A stretch of DNA of 37,327 bases from a virus. Its lineage: Duplodnaviria > Heunggongvirae > Uroviricota > Caudoviricetes. Position 1 is the stretch's first letter; each line of letters opens with the position of its first letter. A program made the translations under genes and the position numbers. The stretch lies in the IMG/VR virus record IMGVR_UViG_3300029886_000148; one strand, written 5' to 3'. This document shows, one piece after another, positions 3,068 to 28,562 of the stretch. The notes beneath the pieces were generated by a model, which saw only the letters and a program-made list of their open reading frames with translations, was not told the origin of the DNA and did not search any database.

Positions 3068-3181
3068 AACTGAAGTTGCCCTGAAAATGAAATTTTTTTT
3101 GCACAACCGCAGAACTTTTCCGCAGGGCATCAGTCTTAATTAGTGCCACTGCTTTTCTTTGATGTCCCCATTTTGTGGAGC

Positions 3182-3224
3182 CCATCAACCCCGCCATTTC
3201 GGTTCAAGGTTGGTGGGTTTTTTG
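3182..3224 (+). terminator. possible rho-independent terminator downstream of ybjL / at the prophage junction
   Basis: Imperfect inverted repeat CCATCAACC...GGTTGGTGG followed by GTTTTTTG. The loop is long, so this is weak. Confidence 0.3.
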
Positions 3225-3303
3225 TTGCCTGAAATTTATGCTTTTTAAAATCATGATGTTAGAAGCACTGTTTTTTAACGATGGCGACAAAATGGCGGCA
3301 GCG

Positions 3304-10592: not shown

Positions 10593-11159
10593 TCAGGGGG
10601 ATTCATTGCTCTTATTTGCCGGAAATTTTCTATAAATTGTGGAAACACCCACATCAAAAATCAGTGCAATACGCTGTCTTGATTCTCCGGCCTCGAGTAA
10701 ACGTCCAATCTGTGCCCACTGTTCGGTCGTCAACTTAGGACGGCGTCCACCTACTCTGCCTTTAGCACGAGCTGCAGCCAGCCCCGCCCTGGTACGTTCA
10801 ACTATCAGTTCGCGTTCCATTTCAGCCAGGGCCCCCATGACATGAAAAAAGAAACGGCCCATTGGGGTGCTGGTATCAATACTGTCAGTCAGGCTTCGGA
10901 AATTCACGCCACGCTGGCGCAACTCTTCTATCAGCGTAACAAGATGCCGCATACTGCGCCCCAACCTGTCCAGCTTCCAGACAACCAGCGTGTCTCCTGC
11001 CGATAGTGTCCTGAGCAGCTTTTTCAGCCCCGGTCTGTCGGACTTGGTGCCACTGATTTTATCCTCAAAAATCCGCTCACATCCCGCACAGTTCAGTGCA
11101 TTGCGTTGCAAATCGGTGTTCTGGTCATTTGTTGACACGCGTACATAGCCAATAAGCAT
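10593..11159 (-). CDS. serine DNA invertase, Gin/Pin/Hin family
   Basis: From the internal ATG: MLIGYVRVSTNDQNTDLQRNAL...TLVVWKLDRLGRS...GRFFFHVMGALAEMERELIVERT...; near-identical motif set to Mu Gin / e14 Pin as I remember them, with catalytic Ser in YVRVST and a C-terminal HTH. Confidence 0.9.
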   Translation of the reverse strand: MLIGYVRVSTNDQNTDLQRNALNCAGCERIFEDKISGTKSDRPGLKKLLRTLSAGDTLVVWKLDRLGRSMRHLVTLIEELRQRGVNFRSLTDSIDTSTPMGRFFFHVMGALAEMERELIVERTRAGLAAARAKGRVGGRRPKLTTEQWAQIGRLLEAGESRQRIALIFDVGVSTIYRKFPANKSNESP

Positions 11160-15390: not shown

Positions 15391-15736
15391 TCTCTGCTCC
15401 TGTTGATACGGAAAGGGAAACAGGCACACCGTTATTACGCCGCCCGGTCAGCTCCACCACCATTGAACCGTCAAAATTGCTGTTAATGGTGATGGAATCC
15501 AGCGTCAGCCGTGGCTCCCAGCGACTCAGCGCCACATACACTGCCGACATGACCTGCAGGCGTAATGCCGGATTTTGTGGCTGATCTATTAAAACCGACA
15601 GGAGGGAACCATATTCCCGGCGGGCAATACGGCTACCCTGCGGTGTCAGCAGAATGTCCCGCACCGACTGGCGCAGATGATCAATATCAGTAATGACTTT
15701 GCCGCTGGTATTGTTCATCCCGCTATAAAGCGTCAT
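15377..15736 (-). CDS. W: baseplate wedge protein W
   Basis: 119 aa between V and J; matches P2 gpW size and position. Confidence 0.8.
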   Translation of the reverse strand: MTLYSGMNNTSGKVITDIDHLRQSVRDILLTPQGSRIARREYGSLLSVLIDQPQNPALRLQVMSAVYVALSRWEPRLTLDSITINSNFDGSMVVELTGRRNNGVPVSLSVSTGAENGSD

Positions 15737-16311
15737 ACCGGGCCTCCGGTTGTGTCGCCGCCTTTCAGGACGCCAGTATGCTGATGCGCATCAACGACGA
15801 TCCCGTTAGAACTCATCACTCCGCCGCCCTGAGTAACGCCACCATTGACCACCACTTCGCTGTTAATACGCGTGCGGTCAGCCTCCAGCACAAACTCACT
15901 GGTTTTCAGGGTAATGTTGTTGGCAGCCTCAATGACCATGGATTTGATGCCCCTGACATACCAGCGCCCGGTGGCGGGTTCATATTCAAACCAGCCGCCG
16001 TCAGGATGCTCTGTCACGCAGGCATCCGCCGACGTCGACGGCGGTGCAAACTGATTCGAATAGATGGCGGGCAACGCAAAGGCGGTTTCCAGATTGCCGC
16101 CCAGACTCAGCAGCACCACCTGTTCGCCTTCCGATGGTCGCCACCATGTCCGGGCATTCCCGGCACGCAGCGTCAGCCAACTGATCCAGTTGGTTTCTAA
16201 GTCACCCGTTTTCACCCGGCAAAGCCAGTTCTTCCTATCCACTTCGGTAACTACACCAGTGCGGATCAGGTTGGTGATAAGGCGCATGATTTCGGTTAAT
16301 TGTGCGTTCAC
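15733..16311 (-). CDS. V: baseplate spike / central hub protein V
   Basis: 192 aa; OB-fold-like N-terminus and Gly-rich C-terminal tip (GGVTQGGGV...GGDTTGGPV); position as P2 gpV. Confidence 0.85.
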   Translation of the reverse strand: MNAQLTEIMRLITNLIRTGVVTEVDRKNWLCRVKTGDLETNWISWLTLRAGNARTWWRPSEGEQVVLLSLGGNLETAFALPAIYSNQFAPPSTSADACVTEHPDGGWFEYEPATGRWYVRGIKSMVIEAANNITLKTSEFVLEADRTRINSEVVVNGGVTQGGGVMSSNGIVVDAHQHTGVLKGGDTTGGPV

Positions 16312-16371
16312 CCTTCCCCCCTTAAAGGTGAACTGTATCTCAATAAGTTGTATTATTATCAGTGTTGTAGT

Positions 16372-16389
16372 TGTACTGTTAACGACACA
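16372..16389 (-). promoter_or_regulatory. putative Ogr-binding dyad (TGT-N12-ACA) of the V late promoter
   Basis: TGTACTGTTAACGACACA, ~60-80 bp upstream of the V start codon, in the short V/ATPase intergenic region. Confidence 0.45.
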
Positions 16390-16398
16390 AGGGAATAT

Positions 16399-17628
16399 AT
16401 GCTTACATCAATAAATGAAATTTATGCTCCAATTCCATACACTAATAAGACAGCAAACTTATTGCTTGACGGTAAAAACCTCATAATAACTGGTGGTAAC
16501 GGGTGTGGAAAAACTAGTTTCATTAGATCTATTTATGATTTCCTTAAAAATAAGATAGATAGACCTAATGATCATAACATCAATAATTTATACAGTACGT
16601 TAGAGTCCTACAAATATCAATTAAATAACGGCGGGCGTGACGACGTTAATTACAACTTTTATTCTGAAGAAATAAAAAACATTGAATTAAAAATTCAACA
16701 ATTAAAAGCCATTAGAATAGAAACAAAAGAAAAAGAAGGTGAAACACGTTCACTATTGAGATTTCACAAAGCTCTACGTGAAGCATCAATTACCTCGCCA
16801 GTTGCCGTTCCTAGGCTATCGGCTTTAATTAATGAAAAATCACATTTTTCTAATGAAGTAGATGGTGATGATTTCTTTGAGAATTATTTGGTTAGCTTAA
16901 AAACAGCTCAGAGCTATGCAATTTCTTTTGATAATGACCATAAGAAAGCTCAGCGGATACAGAAATGGTTTGATAAAATTGAAACTGATATGCAGGAACT
17001 TTTTGAAGATAAAAACCTCTTACTAACGTTTGATAGTAACGAAGGAAAATTTTATCTCAATCAAGATGGTAAAGATAAGTTTACTTTTCAAACATTATCT
17101 TCTGGCTACTCATCAATATTGAGAATTTACGCTGACTTAATAATGAGAGTAGAGATGTGGGGTTTAACACCTGACAGTATCGAAGGTATTATTTTTATTG
17201 ATGAAATAGATGCGCATTTACATGTTTCTTTGCAAAAGCAAATATTAAGATTTTTTAGTCACTCCTTTCCTAAAGTACAATTCATTGTCACTACACATTC
17301 TCCGTTTGTTGTTACATCCGTCACAAATGCCATCATTTATGATCTATCGACCAACGCGAAAATTAGTGATGTGTCTTCATATTCTTATGGTATCATCCTT
17401 CAAGAATTATTCGGAGTAAGTCCAATATCTAAAGTTCTTTCAGATAAGTTAGAACAACTTCAAGATATTATTGACAATATTAACAACAACAATATTGAAA
17501 CTGCCAATAACATAATACAATCCTTAGCACCTTTAGATGAATCCATGGACATCCATGCAAGTGCATTTATTGACTATGCAAAAATGCAGATACTAAAATA
17601 TAAAAAAGCAAACTCTCAGGAGAAATAA
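16399..17628 (+). CDS. ABC-type (AAA_15/AAA_21-like) ATPase, Septu PtuA-like
   Basis: Walker A LIITGGNGCGKTSF, signature-like LSSGYSSIL, Walker B IIFIDEIDAHLH, H-loop TTHSPF, with a long insertion between Walker A and B (SMC/RecF-like). AT-rich. Start taken at the ATG after an AAGGGA RBS, because the track ORF start (16300) would overlap the V start codon. Confidence 0.8.
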   Translation: MLTSINEIYAPIPYTNKTANLLLDGKNLIITGGNGCGKTSFIRSIYDFLKNKIDRPNDHNINNLYSTLESYKYQLNNGGRDDVNYNFYSEEIKNIELKIQQLKAIRIETKEKEGETRSLLRFHKALREASITSPVAVPRLSALINEKSHFSNEVDGDDFFENYLVSLKTAQSYAISFDNDHKKAQRIQKWFDKIETDMQELFEDKNLLLTFDSNEGKFYLNQDGKDKFTFQTLSSGYSSILRIYADLIMRVEMWGLTPDSIEGIIFIDEIDAHLHVSLQKQILRFFSHSFPKVQFIVTTHSPFVVTSVTNAIIYDLSTNAKISDVSSYSYGIILQELFGVSPISKVLSDKLEQLQDIIDNINNNNIETANNIIQSLAPLDESMDIHASAFIDYAKMQILKYKKANSQEK

Positions 17629-18281
17629 TGTTCAAGGTTAATAGAACATATCCTGCACCAAAGTCTCTTTCCAAGAAAGCACGTTATGATGGTGCTGATG
17701 TACATGAAGCACTACAGGAATGTTTTTATGGAAAGTGTTACATTTGCGAAACAAAGAACCCTTTGGATATAAATATTGAACATTTTAAACCCAAGGGTGA
17801 TGATGTGGAAAAAGCTTTTGACTGGGATAATTTATATCTATCATGTTCCAGATGCAACAATATAAAACTATCAAAATATGACAACATTCTTGATTGCTGT
17901 AAAGAAAAGGTATGGGATCGAGTAAAATTACTCCCAGGATATTCTTTTAAAGCAAAAAAAATAACAGTAACAGCACTATTTAATGATATTGAAACGCAGA
18001 CGACTGCTGAGCTACTTGAGAAAGTATATAATAGCGACCATACCATGAGTAAAAAATTAACTTCTGCGGCACTTCGTACCCAAGTAGTGAAAACAACTCA
18101 AAAACTAATTAAAAATATTAATGAATATTATGAAGAAGATACTCCAACAGAACAAAAAAAATACTTAATTGAAAAAATGAAGATGATGATAAAAAGAGAC
18201 GCAGCTTTTTCATCATTTTGCAGATGGATCATTATGGAAGATGCTGAATTAGGTCCAATTCTTGAACCATTTATGGATTAG
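17628..18281 (+). CDS. HNH endonuclease, Septu PtuB-like
   Basis: CYICE...NIEHFKPKG...WDNLYLSCSRCNNIK is an HNH motif set; start overlaps the ATPase stop (TAATG), indicating translational coupling. Confidence 0.8.
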   Translation: MFKVNRTYPAPKSLSKKARYDGADVHEALQECFYGKCYICETKNPLDINIEHFKPKGDDVEKAFDWDNLYLSCSRCNNIKLSKYDNILDCCKEKVWDRVKLLPGYSFKAKKITVTALFNDIETQTTAELLEKVYNSDHTMSKKLTSAALRTQVVKTTQKLIKNINEYYEEDTPTEQKKYLIEKMKMMIKRDAAFSSFCRWIIMEDAELGPILEPFMD

Positions 18282-18290
18282 TAGTAAAAA

Positions 18291-18318
18291 CCCGCCTTCT
18301 AAGAAGGCGGTATTGATT
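18291..18318 (+). terminator. rho-independent terminator after the ATPase/HNH pair
   Basis: Hairpin CCGCCTTC-TAA-GAAGGCGG followed by TATTGATT, directly after the HNH stop codon. Confidence 0.5.
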
Positions 18319-18475
18319 ACATCCTAAAAGGGCGCACCAAAACCTTTAAAAAGAAACCACTTCCAGTTTTGTAAGATTTAAATCCAAAGGCAATAAGGCA
18401 GAGCCAAAACCAGTTGATAACCACGCCCAAAGGACGTGGTTTTCAGTCAGCAATAAATGATGTGGTTTAGTCACA

Positions 18476-18922
18476 TCATTTTATTAACAACTGAAACAAT
18501 ATATCTTTTACTATAGTTTCTGCATATTCATTCATTCCAAGTAAACGACGCTCTGCGTATCGTACTTCCGGTCCTTTTTGACTGACGCGATCACGCAGGC
18601 CGTAATGGTGAACCCGCGCAATGCGCTGCACCTTACCTTCAAACTGCACGCTGGCAGAATCGGCACTGGCGGCAGTTTTCAGGTATTTTGTGGTGCGCAG
18701 CTTTGCAAACATCTGACGTTTGATACGGCCTTTTTTACTGCGTGCTGTTACCCGTCGCGGTTCATAGCTGCTGCCGTCAGGGTTGCGCTGCATCCTGATA
18801 TTCTGCTGCTGTGTCCGGCGAAGTTCCTGCGCCAGCTGGCGCATCATGCTGCTTCTTGCGGCTGGCTCCAGATTCGCCAGCAAGGCACTCAACCAGTCAT
18901 CCACCTTCTGCAGTTCAGCCAC
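18476..18922 (-). CDS. S: tail completion protein S
   Basis: 148 aa, N-terminus MAELQKVDDWL..., position after R as in P2. Confidence 0.8.
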   Translation of the reverse strand: MAELQKVDDWLSALLANLEPAARSSMMRQLAQELRRTQQQNIRMQRNPDGSSYEPRRVTARSKKGRIKRQMFAKLRTTKYLKTAASADSASVQFEGKVQRIARVHHYGLRDRVSQKGPEVRYAERRLLGMNEYAETIVKDILFQLLIK

Positions 18923-26893: not shown

Positions 26894-27211
26894 TTATATA
26901 CCACATACAAAATTGATCTTAACGCTTTTATCAACAACAAGCAGAGAAGTGCCAACAGACTTAATAAATCCCAGTTCATACTCTTCTGAATGCGTCATTG
27001 TAATAATATGAACAGGAACAAATAAATCAAGCTCCCGCAGCTTTCGCTTCAATAATAAACCATCGACACAATCACCTATCACAAGCATATCAATATCATT
27101 TGCATCGCAAAAACTCTTTAATGCTGACCCAAATACATATACATCCACCATATATAAACTATGATGGATAATAACATCACAGATCGATTCAATCGTATGT
27201 TTAAAATTCAC
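26894..27211 (-). CDS. minimal nucleotidyltransferase (MNT/Pol-beta-like)
   Basis: VYVFGSALKSFCDANDIDMLVIGD fits the GS-x9-13-DxD nucleotidyltransferase signature; ~105 aa; GTG start overlaps the upstream stop; AT-rich. Confidence 0.7.
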   Translation of the reverse strand: MNFKHTIESICDVIIHHSLYMVDVYVFGSALKSFCDANDIDMLVIGDCVDGLLLKRKLRELDLFVPVHIITMTHSEEYELGFIKSVGTSLLVVDKSVKINFVCGI

Positions 27212-27870
27212 TACCGTGAAATTCTTCGTAATAAATCACCCAACTTGTAAAGCTCCACCCCGATACTTTGAGCAGCCTCTTTTGCCTGAGTCGTCAATCG
27301 TCCATTAGGATTGGAGGAAAAAACAACATCACAATTGCCATGCAACCCTATCGCATCTCTTACAGAACCCGCTGTCATATCATAATCATTCGCAGCGATA
27401 ATAACTAAGTCCGCCAAGCCACGTCTTTTAAGTCTATATTTTTTGTTGGTTTCTCGCTCTACAGAGCTTACATGTGAATGTTGATTGAACACTCTATTTA
27501 TAAACAAATGCTCTTTATCAAGATGCTCAAGCGGATTATTAGCTCTTAAAGAAGATGCAATATGCCCAAATGAACCCACTCCTATTTTCTTTTGTTCTAG
27601 TAATCTCATTGCATCACCAGAGATAAATTCAACACCTCCCTTGACTGATAGAAAATCAATTTTTTTATTGTCTAGGTATTCATTTATCTCAGGACATGTT
27701 ATCCGGCCAGTATTGATTGCCCCGATCAAATAGGTGTCACCCTGTGTAGTATTAATCACTAAAGTACCATCACCTATCACCTCTATATTTTCGACACATT
27801 TATTTTCTTGTAATTTTCCTGCCATCCATGAAATATAGCCTTCACTCGCATTTATGCTCATTGGATTCAT
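27211..27870 (-). CDS. hypothetical protein, 219 aa (middle gene of the three-gene cassette)
   Basis: Open frame translationally coupled on both sides; no motif assigned (only a C-terminal R-x5-H, RDAIGLH). Confidence 0.55.
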   Translation of the reverse strand: MNPMSINASEGYISWMAGKLQENKCVENIEVIGDGTLVINTTQGDTYLIGAINTGRITCPEINEYLDNKKIDFLSVKGGVEFISGDAMRLLEQKKIGVGSFGHIASSLRANNPLEHLDKEHLFINRVFNQHSHVSSVERETNKKYRLKRRGLADLVIIAANDYDMTAGSVRDAIGLHGNCDVVFSSNPNGRLTTQAKEAAQSIGVELYKLGDLLRRISR

Positions 27871-28562
27871 CCTATAAATAGTTCAGATGCAGCTTCTGGA
27901 AACCTACTACCATTAGCATCGGTTAAGCCCAAATGTTTTGATTCAAAGTCATCTATATGAACACAAAGCTTTGAAAAAACATTCTTCTCATCTTCACTCA
28001 TGAGGTGATAGTTTTGTTCAACCAGTCGCTGTACTTTTCTATTGTTGGGTAAGATATGAGATTGTACTTTTCTTAACCATACTTCTGCATTTGGATTTTC
28101 AGGGTCAACGCTGTTCTCTTGGGTTGGTCCATATGTTACAAAAATGGTATTGTTTTCTCTGAAGTATTTTTCTAACTCCTGTCTAACAGATTCTCGATTG
28201 TCATATGTTTTAACACCAAAGGTTGCATTTATTTTATCAATATGGCCGTTTTTCCAAGAGCGGATAATTTCATCAGTAAAATGTTCCTCTGCCTTATCAA
28301 TTGTCGTATGGCAATTAGCACATAGAAGAATAATGTTGTCAAAATGACCTCTCTGCTCATCAGTTAGATCAGCATTGGTTCTAGGTCCATTATCAATGGC
28401 ACTAAAGATGTGAGCAAGTTCTCCAATTGTTATATTTTTGTCGCCAGCATCAACAAACAAAGGTTGCAAGCATTGTGGATTTTGGCAAAAGCCACCTGAG
28501 CTGGCAAAAAGCCGTCTAACTGTATTAGCGTTTGGGGAAGCTTTTCCCCTACTGCAAGCCAT
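27867..28562 (-). CDS. HNH-motif protein with an unassigned C-terminal domain, 231 aa
   Basis: CQNPQC ... ELAHIFSA ... NIILLCANCHTTID resembles an HNH/zinc-finger nuclease core in the N-terminal ~90 aa; the rest is unassigned. Confidence 0.6.
   Translation of the reverse strand: MACSRGKASPNANTVRRLFASSGGFCQNPQCLQPLFVDAGDKNITIGELAHIFSAIDNGPRTNADLTDEQRGHFDNIILLCANCHTTIDKAEEHFTDEIIRSWKNGHIDKINATFGVKTYDNRESVRQELEKYFRENNTIFVTYGPTQENSVDPENPNAEVWLRKVQSHILPNNRKVQRLVEQNYHLMSEDEKNVFSKLCVHIDDFESKHLGLTDANGSRFPEAASELFIG

Follow-up and report, generated by a model that had tools for sequence, protein, structure and literature searches.

The 37,327-nt stretch of viral DNA analysed here (IMG/VR record IMGVR_UViG_3300029886_000148; in the following, the window) corresponds to a P2-like prophage of Escherichia coli F374, which is located between ybjL and rcdA. 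Between its baseplate gene V and its tail completion gene S, two genes on the plus strand, ptuA (16399..17628) and ptuB (17628..18281), encode an ATPase and an HNH nuclease. We are confident, short of certainty, that these genes constitute a Septu anti-phage system of the stand-alone type (type I), which was acquired horizontally as a cassette and occupies the slot filled by orf30 in phage P2. Judged by profile matches and predicted structures, both proteins are members of the PtuA and PtuB families with intact catalytic residues; the anti-phage phenotype and the mechanism of the pair would follow by homology. The pair is an additional Septu variant of a known defence family and is recognised by PADLOC alone.

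Identification of PtuA and PtuB

PtuA, a 409-residue ATPase resembling ABC/SMC proteins, matched the PADLOC profile PDLC00268 (PtuA1) with E=7.3e-140 over residues 2-404; PtuB, a 217-residue HNH nuclease whose C-terminal domain is helical, matched PDLC00321 (PtuB1) with E=2.2e-99 over residues 1-217. For PtuA, the next-best PADLOC families outside Septu were the retron ATPase_I-A (3.5e-32) and AriA (4.7e-23). The Pfam scores of PtuA were 68 bits for AAA_21 and 52 bits for AAA_15, each above the cut-off, and PtuB reached 26.8 bits with the HNH family (cut-off 21.4). A previous sequence-only reading of the window had proposed the PtuA/PtuB pairing on the basis of motifs and had suggested a comparison with PtuA/PtuB, AbiL and OLD profiles. 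In PADLOC, Septu was the best match. Profile scores and the domain of the partner protein spoke against AbiL, the OLD family and PARIS (AriAB), all of which were rejected. For OLD, an ABC ATPase fused to or paired with a TOPRIM nuclease domain would be expected, and Pfam and PADLOC detected no TOPRIM domain in either protein. For PARIS, the partner is an HNH protein and not a DUF4435/TOPRIM AriB, an AriB match was not found, and the AriA score of the ATPase is much weaker than the 7e-140 for PtuA. The same reading had named, as an outcome that would refute it, an ATPase of a non-defence family with a role in phage morphogenesis; the profiles place it in a defence family.

All ATPase and HNH motifs quoted in that reading were located in the two proteins. 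In PtuA, these are the Walker A motif GGNGCGKT (residues 32-39), the signature LSSGY (233-237), the Walker B motif IIFIDEID (264-271) and the H-loop TTHSP (298-302); K38, D268/E269 and H300 are invariant among the aligned homologues. In PtuB, CYICE starts at residue 37, EHFKPK at 51 (with H52) and NLYLSCSRCNN at 68. Residues C37, C40, H52, N68, C73, C76 and N77, which make up the catalytic and zinc-binding pattern CxxC...H...N...CxxC-N, are invariant in 41 homologues. More than 1,200 homologues of PtuA were found, and the compact subfamily of about 410 residues spans Enterobacterales, Vibrio, Pseudomonas and further genera.

As sequence searches of the PDB were weaker than the profile searches, the structures of both proteins were predicted. 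AlphaFold (AF2) models were built from the homologue alignments and compared with the PDB by means of Foldseek. The sequence search with PtuA had returned PtuA chains only, aligned over the C-terminal half (retron I-A PtuA at about 1e-14, Septu PtuA of 8EE4 at 5e-11). For the PtuA model, which has a predicted local distance difference test (pLDDT) value of 82, the best 50 Foldseek matches were all PtuA chains with E-values of about 1e-12. For the PtuB model (pLDDT 93), 11 significant matches were obtained, all of them full-length matches to PtuB chains with a template modelling (TM) score of about 0.6; the next match had E=0.85. Thus, full-length PADLOC matches and fold matches exclusively to PtuA and PtuB chains bear out the Septu assignment of the sequence-only reading. 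The PtuA model contains three predicted C-terminal helices (residues 343-404), and the C-terminal half of the PtuB model (121-215) is predicted to be helical; these elements fit the clamp between the two proteins that has been published.

The two genes lie side by side in the same orientation and form an operon, in which ptuA precedes ptuB. The stop codon TAA of ptuA (17626-17628) and the ATG of ptuB (17628-17630) have one base in common (TAATG), and AGGAG, the Shine-Dalgarno sequence for ptuB, is located 8 nt 5' of this ATG. The neighbours V (15733-16311) and S (18476-18922) are encoded on the minus strand and belong to the P2-like late region. Coordinates, strand and overlap of the two genes, as well as their antisense orientation to V and S, are those given in the sequence-only reading, and the low GC content noted there was also found: it is 0.31-0.335 over positions 16401-18400 versus 0.52-0.59 on either side, i. 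e. 31-33% for the pair versus 52-59% for the flanks. At its longest, the open frame of the first gene would begin with a TTG (16300). Still, the ATG at 16399 is supported as the start of ptuA, because M1 is invariant among the 31 aligned homologues, because the homologues agree in length (mostly 408-412 residues, at most 419) and because the RefSeq start is identical.

Observations weighing against a Septu system, and competing explanations

Several observations speak against this assignment and were set against the above matches. The fold matches of PtuA have TM scores of 0.4-0.5 and a sequence identity of only 14-18%; given identities as low as these to the solved PtuA/PtuB structures, trigger, target and stoichiometry may differ. 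The search of the PDB with the PtuB sequence gave a marginal match only, to PtuB (E=0.007). We know of no member of the compact subfamily (about 410 plus about 217 residues) that has been studied by experiment. A stricter promoter scan of the 88-bp gap between V and ptuA detected no promoter on the plus strand, and the overall matches were no better than those of shuffled sequences. Among the cassette lineages described below, the codon changes in ptuA (synonymous/non-synonymous 19/21, 5/5 and 19/24) include many non-synonymous ones. Finally, the M7424 record has seven instead of eight A residues in the A8 tract at 17953..17960 (plus strand, around codon 110 of ptuB), and ptuB is split there into two open reading frames (ORFs), as was read directly from the record. 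Three further records, which are 99.9% identical, show the same match of 1882 bases, one base shorter, and an extra "hypothetical protein"; they appear to share this frameshift, which hints at a cost or at decay.

The low identity to experimentally studied PtuAB proteins (14-18%) is also the first argument for the alternative that survives best, although we consider it improbable: the pair might be a distinct ATPase-HNH module that merely resembles Septu and acts as an addiction- or toxin-like stabiliser of the prophage or as a nuclease directed against other mobile elements. Ec78 PtuAB devoid of its retron is toxic to the host (PMC12819146), a fitness cost is suggested by the ptuB frameshift in M7424 and apparently in the three near-identical records, and relatives of the pair adjoin integrases and resolvases on mobile elements. 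In Klebsiella, an ATPase with 57% identity and a partner with 56% identity to PtuB are found next to an integrase in an integrative element; in Vibrio, the respective values are 42% and 44%, and resolvases adjoin. Both relatives have the same gene order, a gap of 8-10 nt and a partner of 217-219 residues. By this comparison, ptuA and ptuB stay together in other bacteria, where they travel on unrelated mobile elements. Against a distinct module stand the very strong, full-length PADLOC matches of both PtuA and PtuB, the defence systems that other prophages hold at the same site (see below), and the finding that those stand-alone Septu systems which have been tested to date protect against phage (PMC13096335).

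The variation within the cassette bears on a second alternative, namely that it is a decaying, inactive passenger without function in the current strain. The three cassette lineages are 96-100% identical, and every ORF is intact. In ptuB, the synonymous/non-synonymous codon changes among the lineages are 15/3, 11/2 and 4/1; on these counts, the change in ptuB is mostly synonymous. The A8-to-A7 frameshift in M7424, and apparently in three more of the 13 carriers, would agree with decay, as would the failure to find a convincing promoter. As the ORFs with all catalytic residues are intact in the window and in two diverged lineages and as ptuB changes are largely synonymous, we regard decay as very unlikely; Septu function in the intact lineages is the preferred explanation. 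The A7 variant is either a real off-switch, i. e. the tract is an on/off slip site, or a sequencing error in a homopolymer. A candidate signal of diversifying selection on the helical insert of PtuA, where 12 of 21 amino-acid changes fall in residues 51-189, was too weak and was discarded.

With respect to their backbones, two further carriers (L016 and L017) differ from the window by 6-7% in V and by only 1-4% in ptuAB and the V-ptuA gap. The larger divergence of V suggests that the module moved among P2-like backbones more recently than these backbones diverged.

Stand-alone type versus retron effector

PtuA/PtuB pairs also occur as effectors of type I-A retrons, and a remnant of an Ec78/Eco7-like retron that has lost its reverse transcriptase (RT) and its non-coding RNA (ncRNA) had to be considered. 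Among the best PDB matches, by sequence as well as by fold, are retron I-A PtuA and PtuB, and the only PtuA/PtuB models of NCBIfam, which are retron-Ec78 equivalogs, gave partial matches. The scores of these matches, 98 bits for NF041760 (cut-off 500) and 26.5 bits for NF041761 (cut-off 150), are far below the equivalog cut-offs. Beside ptuAB, no RT gene was found, and there is no third gene in the operon; the adjoining genes are the phage genes V and S. An Rfam scan of the whole window detected nothing in the cassette and no retron RNA; the only hit was the host small RNA gene RybB (3148-3226, plus strand; 104 bits) in the left chromosomal flank. Moreover, the same compact pair occurs in Klebsiella and Vibrio without an RT.

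The PtuA sequence itself differs from retron PtuA in two respects. Residue 28 aligns with residue 89 of Ec78 PtuA, and Walker A starts at 32 compared with about 90 in Ec78; therefore, the N-terminal extension of about 60 residues that is characteristic of the retron protein, and which binds RT and ncRNA (PMC12819146), is missing. In addition, the last residue of the signature motif, Tyr237, aligns with Gln361 of Ec78. Stand-alone Septu PtuA has a leucine at this position and is devoid of ATPase activity (PMC12819146). The tyrosine in place of the glutamine of hydrolysis-proficient retron PtuA thus matches stand-alone Septu, and the protein would be expected to bind ATP but barely to hydrolyse it. 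Because RT and retron RNA are missing, the N-terminal extension is absent and a tyrosine replaces the signature glutamine, we assign the pair to the stand-alone type. In the light of the sub-cut-off scores, the missing RT and RNA and the missing extension, the idea of a retron remnant is effectively refuted and can be given next to no credence.

The slot between S and V

The annotation of P2 in RefSeq gives the order S, terminator, Orf30 (261 residues, opposite strand, non-essential), activator site of pV, and V. According to this layout, ptuAB fills the orf30 slot in the same antisense orientation; the S terminator precedes it, and it lies just upstream of the site for the activator of pV. 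The sequence-only reading had stated that P2 carries only a small accessory ORF here; with 261 residues (786 bp), orf30 is not especially small. In PADLOC, no match was found for Orf30. Three moron loci are recognised in P2-like phages, namely the orf30, TO and Z regions (PMC6823313, PMC3091744). The features of a moron are found at the orf30 locus, namely the position between S terminator and pV activator, a foreign composition, variable presence, and at least eight types of cargo.

To assess how common the pair is, the V and S flanks were searched in 5,426 complete E. coli genomes. They were present in 1,054, and ptuAB was found in 13 of these, always at the S-V site. For a sample of 60 evenly spaced records, 57 sites could be scored: 32 of these (about 56%) were empty, S and V lying about 68 bp apart, and the other 25 were occupied. 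Universal presence of the pair at this position in P2-like phages, which the sequence-only reading had named as part of a further refuting outcome, is thus at odds with 13 carriers among 1,054 flank-sharing genomes and with about half of the sampled sites being empty. The pair is an accessory cassette that is rare and variable at its site. A comparison of the cassette DNA and the PtuA protein with 50,697 deposited phage records gave no close match; consequently, there is no phage isolate to refer to. That the pair serves the phage itself in its life cycle, for example as a nuclease for DNA processing or morphogenesis, might be suspected from its site amid the essential late genes of the tail/baseplate block and beside the late V promoter, but this is scarcely credible, since about 99% of the related prophages and all deposited phage genomes lack the pair, deposited relatives matched by their flanks have an empty site or different cargo, the pair is antisense to the late operons and foreign in GC content, and the annotation of P2 lists its gene in this slot as non-essential.

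In six further occupied prophages (L010-L015), the cargo of the S-V slot was examined by means of PADLOC. One prophage contains an AAA ATPase and a DUF4435 protein, which match PARIS (AriA 5.7e-40, AriB 2.3e-24). The others carry an AIPR protein that is AbiU-like (3.7e-28), a SIR2 protein with an unknown partner that is ThsA-like (2e-25), a GmrSD-domain protein that is NsnA-like (3e-23), a TIR-domain protein with a weak match to the candidate PDC-S66, and a DUF6216 protein, also present in BL21, for which PADLOC gave no match. Five of the six cargos are oriented like ptuAB, i. e. antisense to the late genes. Owing to the defence genes among this alternative cargo, the S-V slot behaves as a defence hotspot. 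In P2, genes with a role in phage exclusion include old, tin and fun. Of the published surveys of defence hotspots, one covers the cos-proximal old/tin locus (PMC9122126) and one the fun locus (PMC9519451), and neither covers the S-V slot. We found no description of the S-V slot as a hotspot for defence genes in the literature searched, and its absence there is no proof.

The other two loci of this prophage were also inspected. At the cos-proximal (old/tin) hotspot, a low-GC cluster of three genes is located on the minus strand (26894-28562). It encodes a 231-residue HNH-like protein, which matches the PADLOC candidate PDC-M68A (2e-29) and endonucleases resembling CBASS effectors, a 216-residue protein without matches, and a 105-residue protein with a weak match to nucleotidyltransferases; a gene for a GNAT acetyltransferase follows at 28997-29416. 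This cluster may be a second, uncharacterised defence system. The fun(Z) slot (10593-11159, minus strand; 14894-15460 in L001), flanked by the gene for tail-fibre assembly and that for the sheath, contains a recombinase-family (invertase-like) gene and no recognisable defence gene.

Extent and composition of the exchanged module

The sequence-only reading had described an insert at 16399-18281. These coordinates hold for the two genes, but the exchanged module is wider and covers positions 16311..18527, the region without homology to the empty-site prophage L002. Homology to L002 ends at the start codon of V (16310/16311) and restarts at 18528 within the 3' end of S. The module therefore comprises the upstream region of V, ptuAB, a GC-rich hairpin, a structured spacer of 165 bp, and the last 17 codons of S. 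Its right-hand segment (18296-18530) is confined to the same 13 genomes that carry ptuAB.

The module-specific 3' end of S (18476..18527, minus strand) makes the C-terminus of the protein end in ...MNEYAETIVKDILFQLLIK, compared with ...VNDDVEAMTRDMILQWLAG in the empty-site relative; DNA homology begins at 18528. Among prophages with differing cargo, the length of S varies between 444 and 453 nt, and from these sequences each type of cargo seems to bring its own S C-terminus. The hairpin at 18292..18310 has a stem of eight pairs, six of which are G-C pairs, and its predicted fold is more stable than that of shuffled sequences (z=-4.8). On the minus strand, a U-run follows (GTTTTTAC); the plus-strand tail is poorer. 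In P2, a terminator is annotated directly after S. Given the U-run on one strand and the poorer tail on the other, the hairpin could end transcription in both directions, that of the S operon (minus strand) and that of ptuAB (plus strand). The non-coding spacer downstream of S (18311..18475, minus strand) is predicted to form a series of hairpins (z=-4.5 compared with shuffled sequences) and occurs only together with the Septu cassette.

The V promoter region and expression of ptuA

The regions upstream of V were aligned for eight types of cargo, and this module was compared with L002, L010-L015 and L018. The only motif conserved throughout is TTGT-N12-ACAA. It contains the late V promoter's activator box of the Ogr/B type, TGT-N12-ACA (16372..16389, minus strand); at the corresponding place in P2, RefSeq annotates a site at which the activator of pV binds. 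The putative Ogr box named in the sequence-only reading is thereby substantiated. The annotated transcription start of P2 is the first base of V, which corresponds to a leaderless geometry; this start was taken from the P2 RefSeq record, as text searches of the literature for a leaderless message of gene V yielded nothing usable. From the end of the box to the ATG of V, the distance is 46 nt in seven variants, i. e. that of the leaderless P2 geometry, whereas it is 60 nt to a GTG in this module. On account of the 14 additional nucleotides (TTAAGGGGGGAAGG) and the GTG, a short V leader with a strong Shine-Dalgarno sequence is predicted at 16312..16325 (minus strand), as deduced from the box spacing and the presumed start. 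In the Septu module, the V message thus apparently no longer begins, leaderless, with an AUG, but has a leader of 14 nt that contains a strong ribosome-binding site and precedes a GUG.

The ATG of ptuA is located 10 nt past the activator box, and the ribosome-binding site AAGGGA of ptuA abuts it; for this reason, the ptuA promoter must overlap the V promoter region. Neither the strict nor a lenient scan identified a convincing sigma-70 promoter for ptuA, and none is claimed. A weak, speculative candidate on the plus strand, GTGAAC-17-TATTAT at 16328..16356 with 8 of 12 matches, appeared in the lenient scan only. Expression of ptuAB may be tied to this intergenic region, as the sequence-only reading had suggested, and is possibly coupled to the lytic switch, with late transcription driven by Ogr shutting the defence off.

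These findings can be combined into one larger but tentative picture, which we judge to be possible and yet more probably wrong than right as a whole: the S-V (orf30) slot would be a third, so far uncatalogued defence hotspot of P2-like phages, whose modules bring along the promoter region of V, conserved only in the activator box and its spacing, and the end of S; V would have acquired a leader, and Ogr would shut off ptuAB. Separately, the compact PtuAB may have a trigger or a target of its own.

Proposed mechanism and implications

A chain of events can be drawn up for the Septu pair from published work on Septu and retron PtuAB. In the lysogen, PtuA and PtuB would be made from their own promoter, opposite to the late genes. 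PtuA would oligomerise via its ABC head and helical insert and would hold PtuB by means of its three C-terminal helices, and the ATP-bound PtuA oligomers would keep the nuclease inactive. Upon infection by another phage, which may be sensed via a phage protein and/or a drop in ATP, PtuB would be released or activated. Active PtuB would then cut nucleic acid, DNA nicking and/or cleavage of tRNA-Tyr having been reported, and bring about an abortive stop to phage growth. The lysogen population, and hence the prophage, would be protected in this way. No tRNA genes were found in the window, so that it offers no phage-borne counter-measure based on tRNA-Tyr.

Taken by itself, the pair is one more PADLOC-recognisable Septu variant among the defence systems borne by prophages. 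What is added here is the context: a third slot that is rich in defence genes and rarely occupied by this pair, a module that includes essential sequence, and the apparent change in the V leader. In P2-like phages of E. coli, the S-V slot holds a rotating set of defence systems with Septu, PARIS, AbiU-like, SIR2, GmrSD-like and TIR members, and it may yield candidate defence genes that have not been tried, such as the DUF6216 gene of BL21. As the promoter of V and the end of S are part of the module, it is a natural case of cargo being swapped without breaking the late operon.

Comparison with known systems

The stand-alone PtuAB of E. coli ATCC 25922 (PDB codes 8EE4, 8EEA, 8SUX) resembles the pair in several respects. 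It is encoded in a two-gene ptuA-ptuB operon without an RT; its PtuA, devoid of the signature glutamine, is an ABC ATPase that has a helical insert and is extended by helices at the C-terminus; and its PtuB, an HNH nuclease, likewise has a C-terminal domain made of helices. In fold, the two proteins match those of the pair. In contrast, PtuA consists of 465 residues there and 409 here, the identity is about 14-16%, and phmmer aligns the C-terminal half of PtuA only (E=5e-11). According to the summary given in PMC12819146, stand-alone PtuAB forms a hexameric assembly, its DNA nicking is inhibited by ATP, and it is sensitised by a phage tail fibre. The 6:2 assembly and the ATP-inhibited nicking are features of the ATCC 25922 system, whereas the compact subfamily is known here from sequences and models.

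Septu Ec-B88 from E. coli JBBDAGI-19-0041 (PMC13096335) is also a stand-alone pair of PtuA and PtuB. Its defence requires the Walker A/B and HNH residues, resembles abortive infection, and involves cleavage of tRNA-Tyr's variable loop (PMC13096335). The motif residues are K43, D316, H75 and N91 in Ec-B88 versus K38, D268, H52 and N68 here; these differing positions indicate that Ec-B88 belongs to a different, larger subfamily. Cleavage of the tRNA-Tyr variable loop has been demonstrated for Ec-B88, whereas for the pair described here it is assumed to be possible.

The PtuAB effectors of the type I-A retrons Eco7/Ec78 and Ec83 were the best PDB matches by sequence and by fold and have in common with this pair an ATPase core, an HNH domain and the architecture in which PtuA's C-terminal extension meets PtuB's C-terminal domain. 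The pair differs from them in lacking an RT, multicopy single-stranded DNA (msDNA) as well as the N-terminal extension, in having a tyrosine for the signature glutamine, and in scoring below the equivalog cut-offs. PARIS, finally, likewise combines an ABC ATPase (AriA) with a nuclease (AriB), and a PARIS pair fills the same S-V slot in another E. coli prophage; there, the nuclease partner is a DUF4435/TOPRIM protein, whereas it is an HNH protein here.

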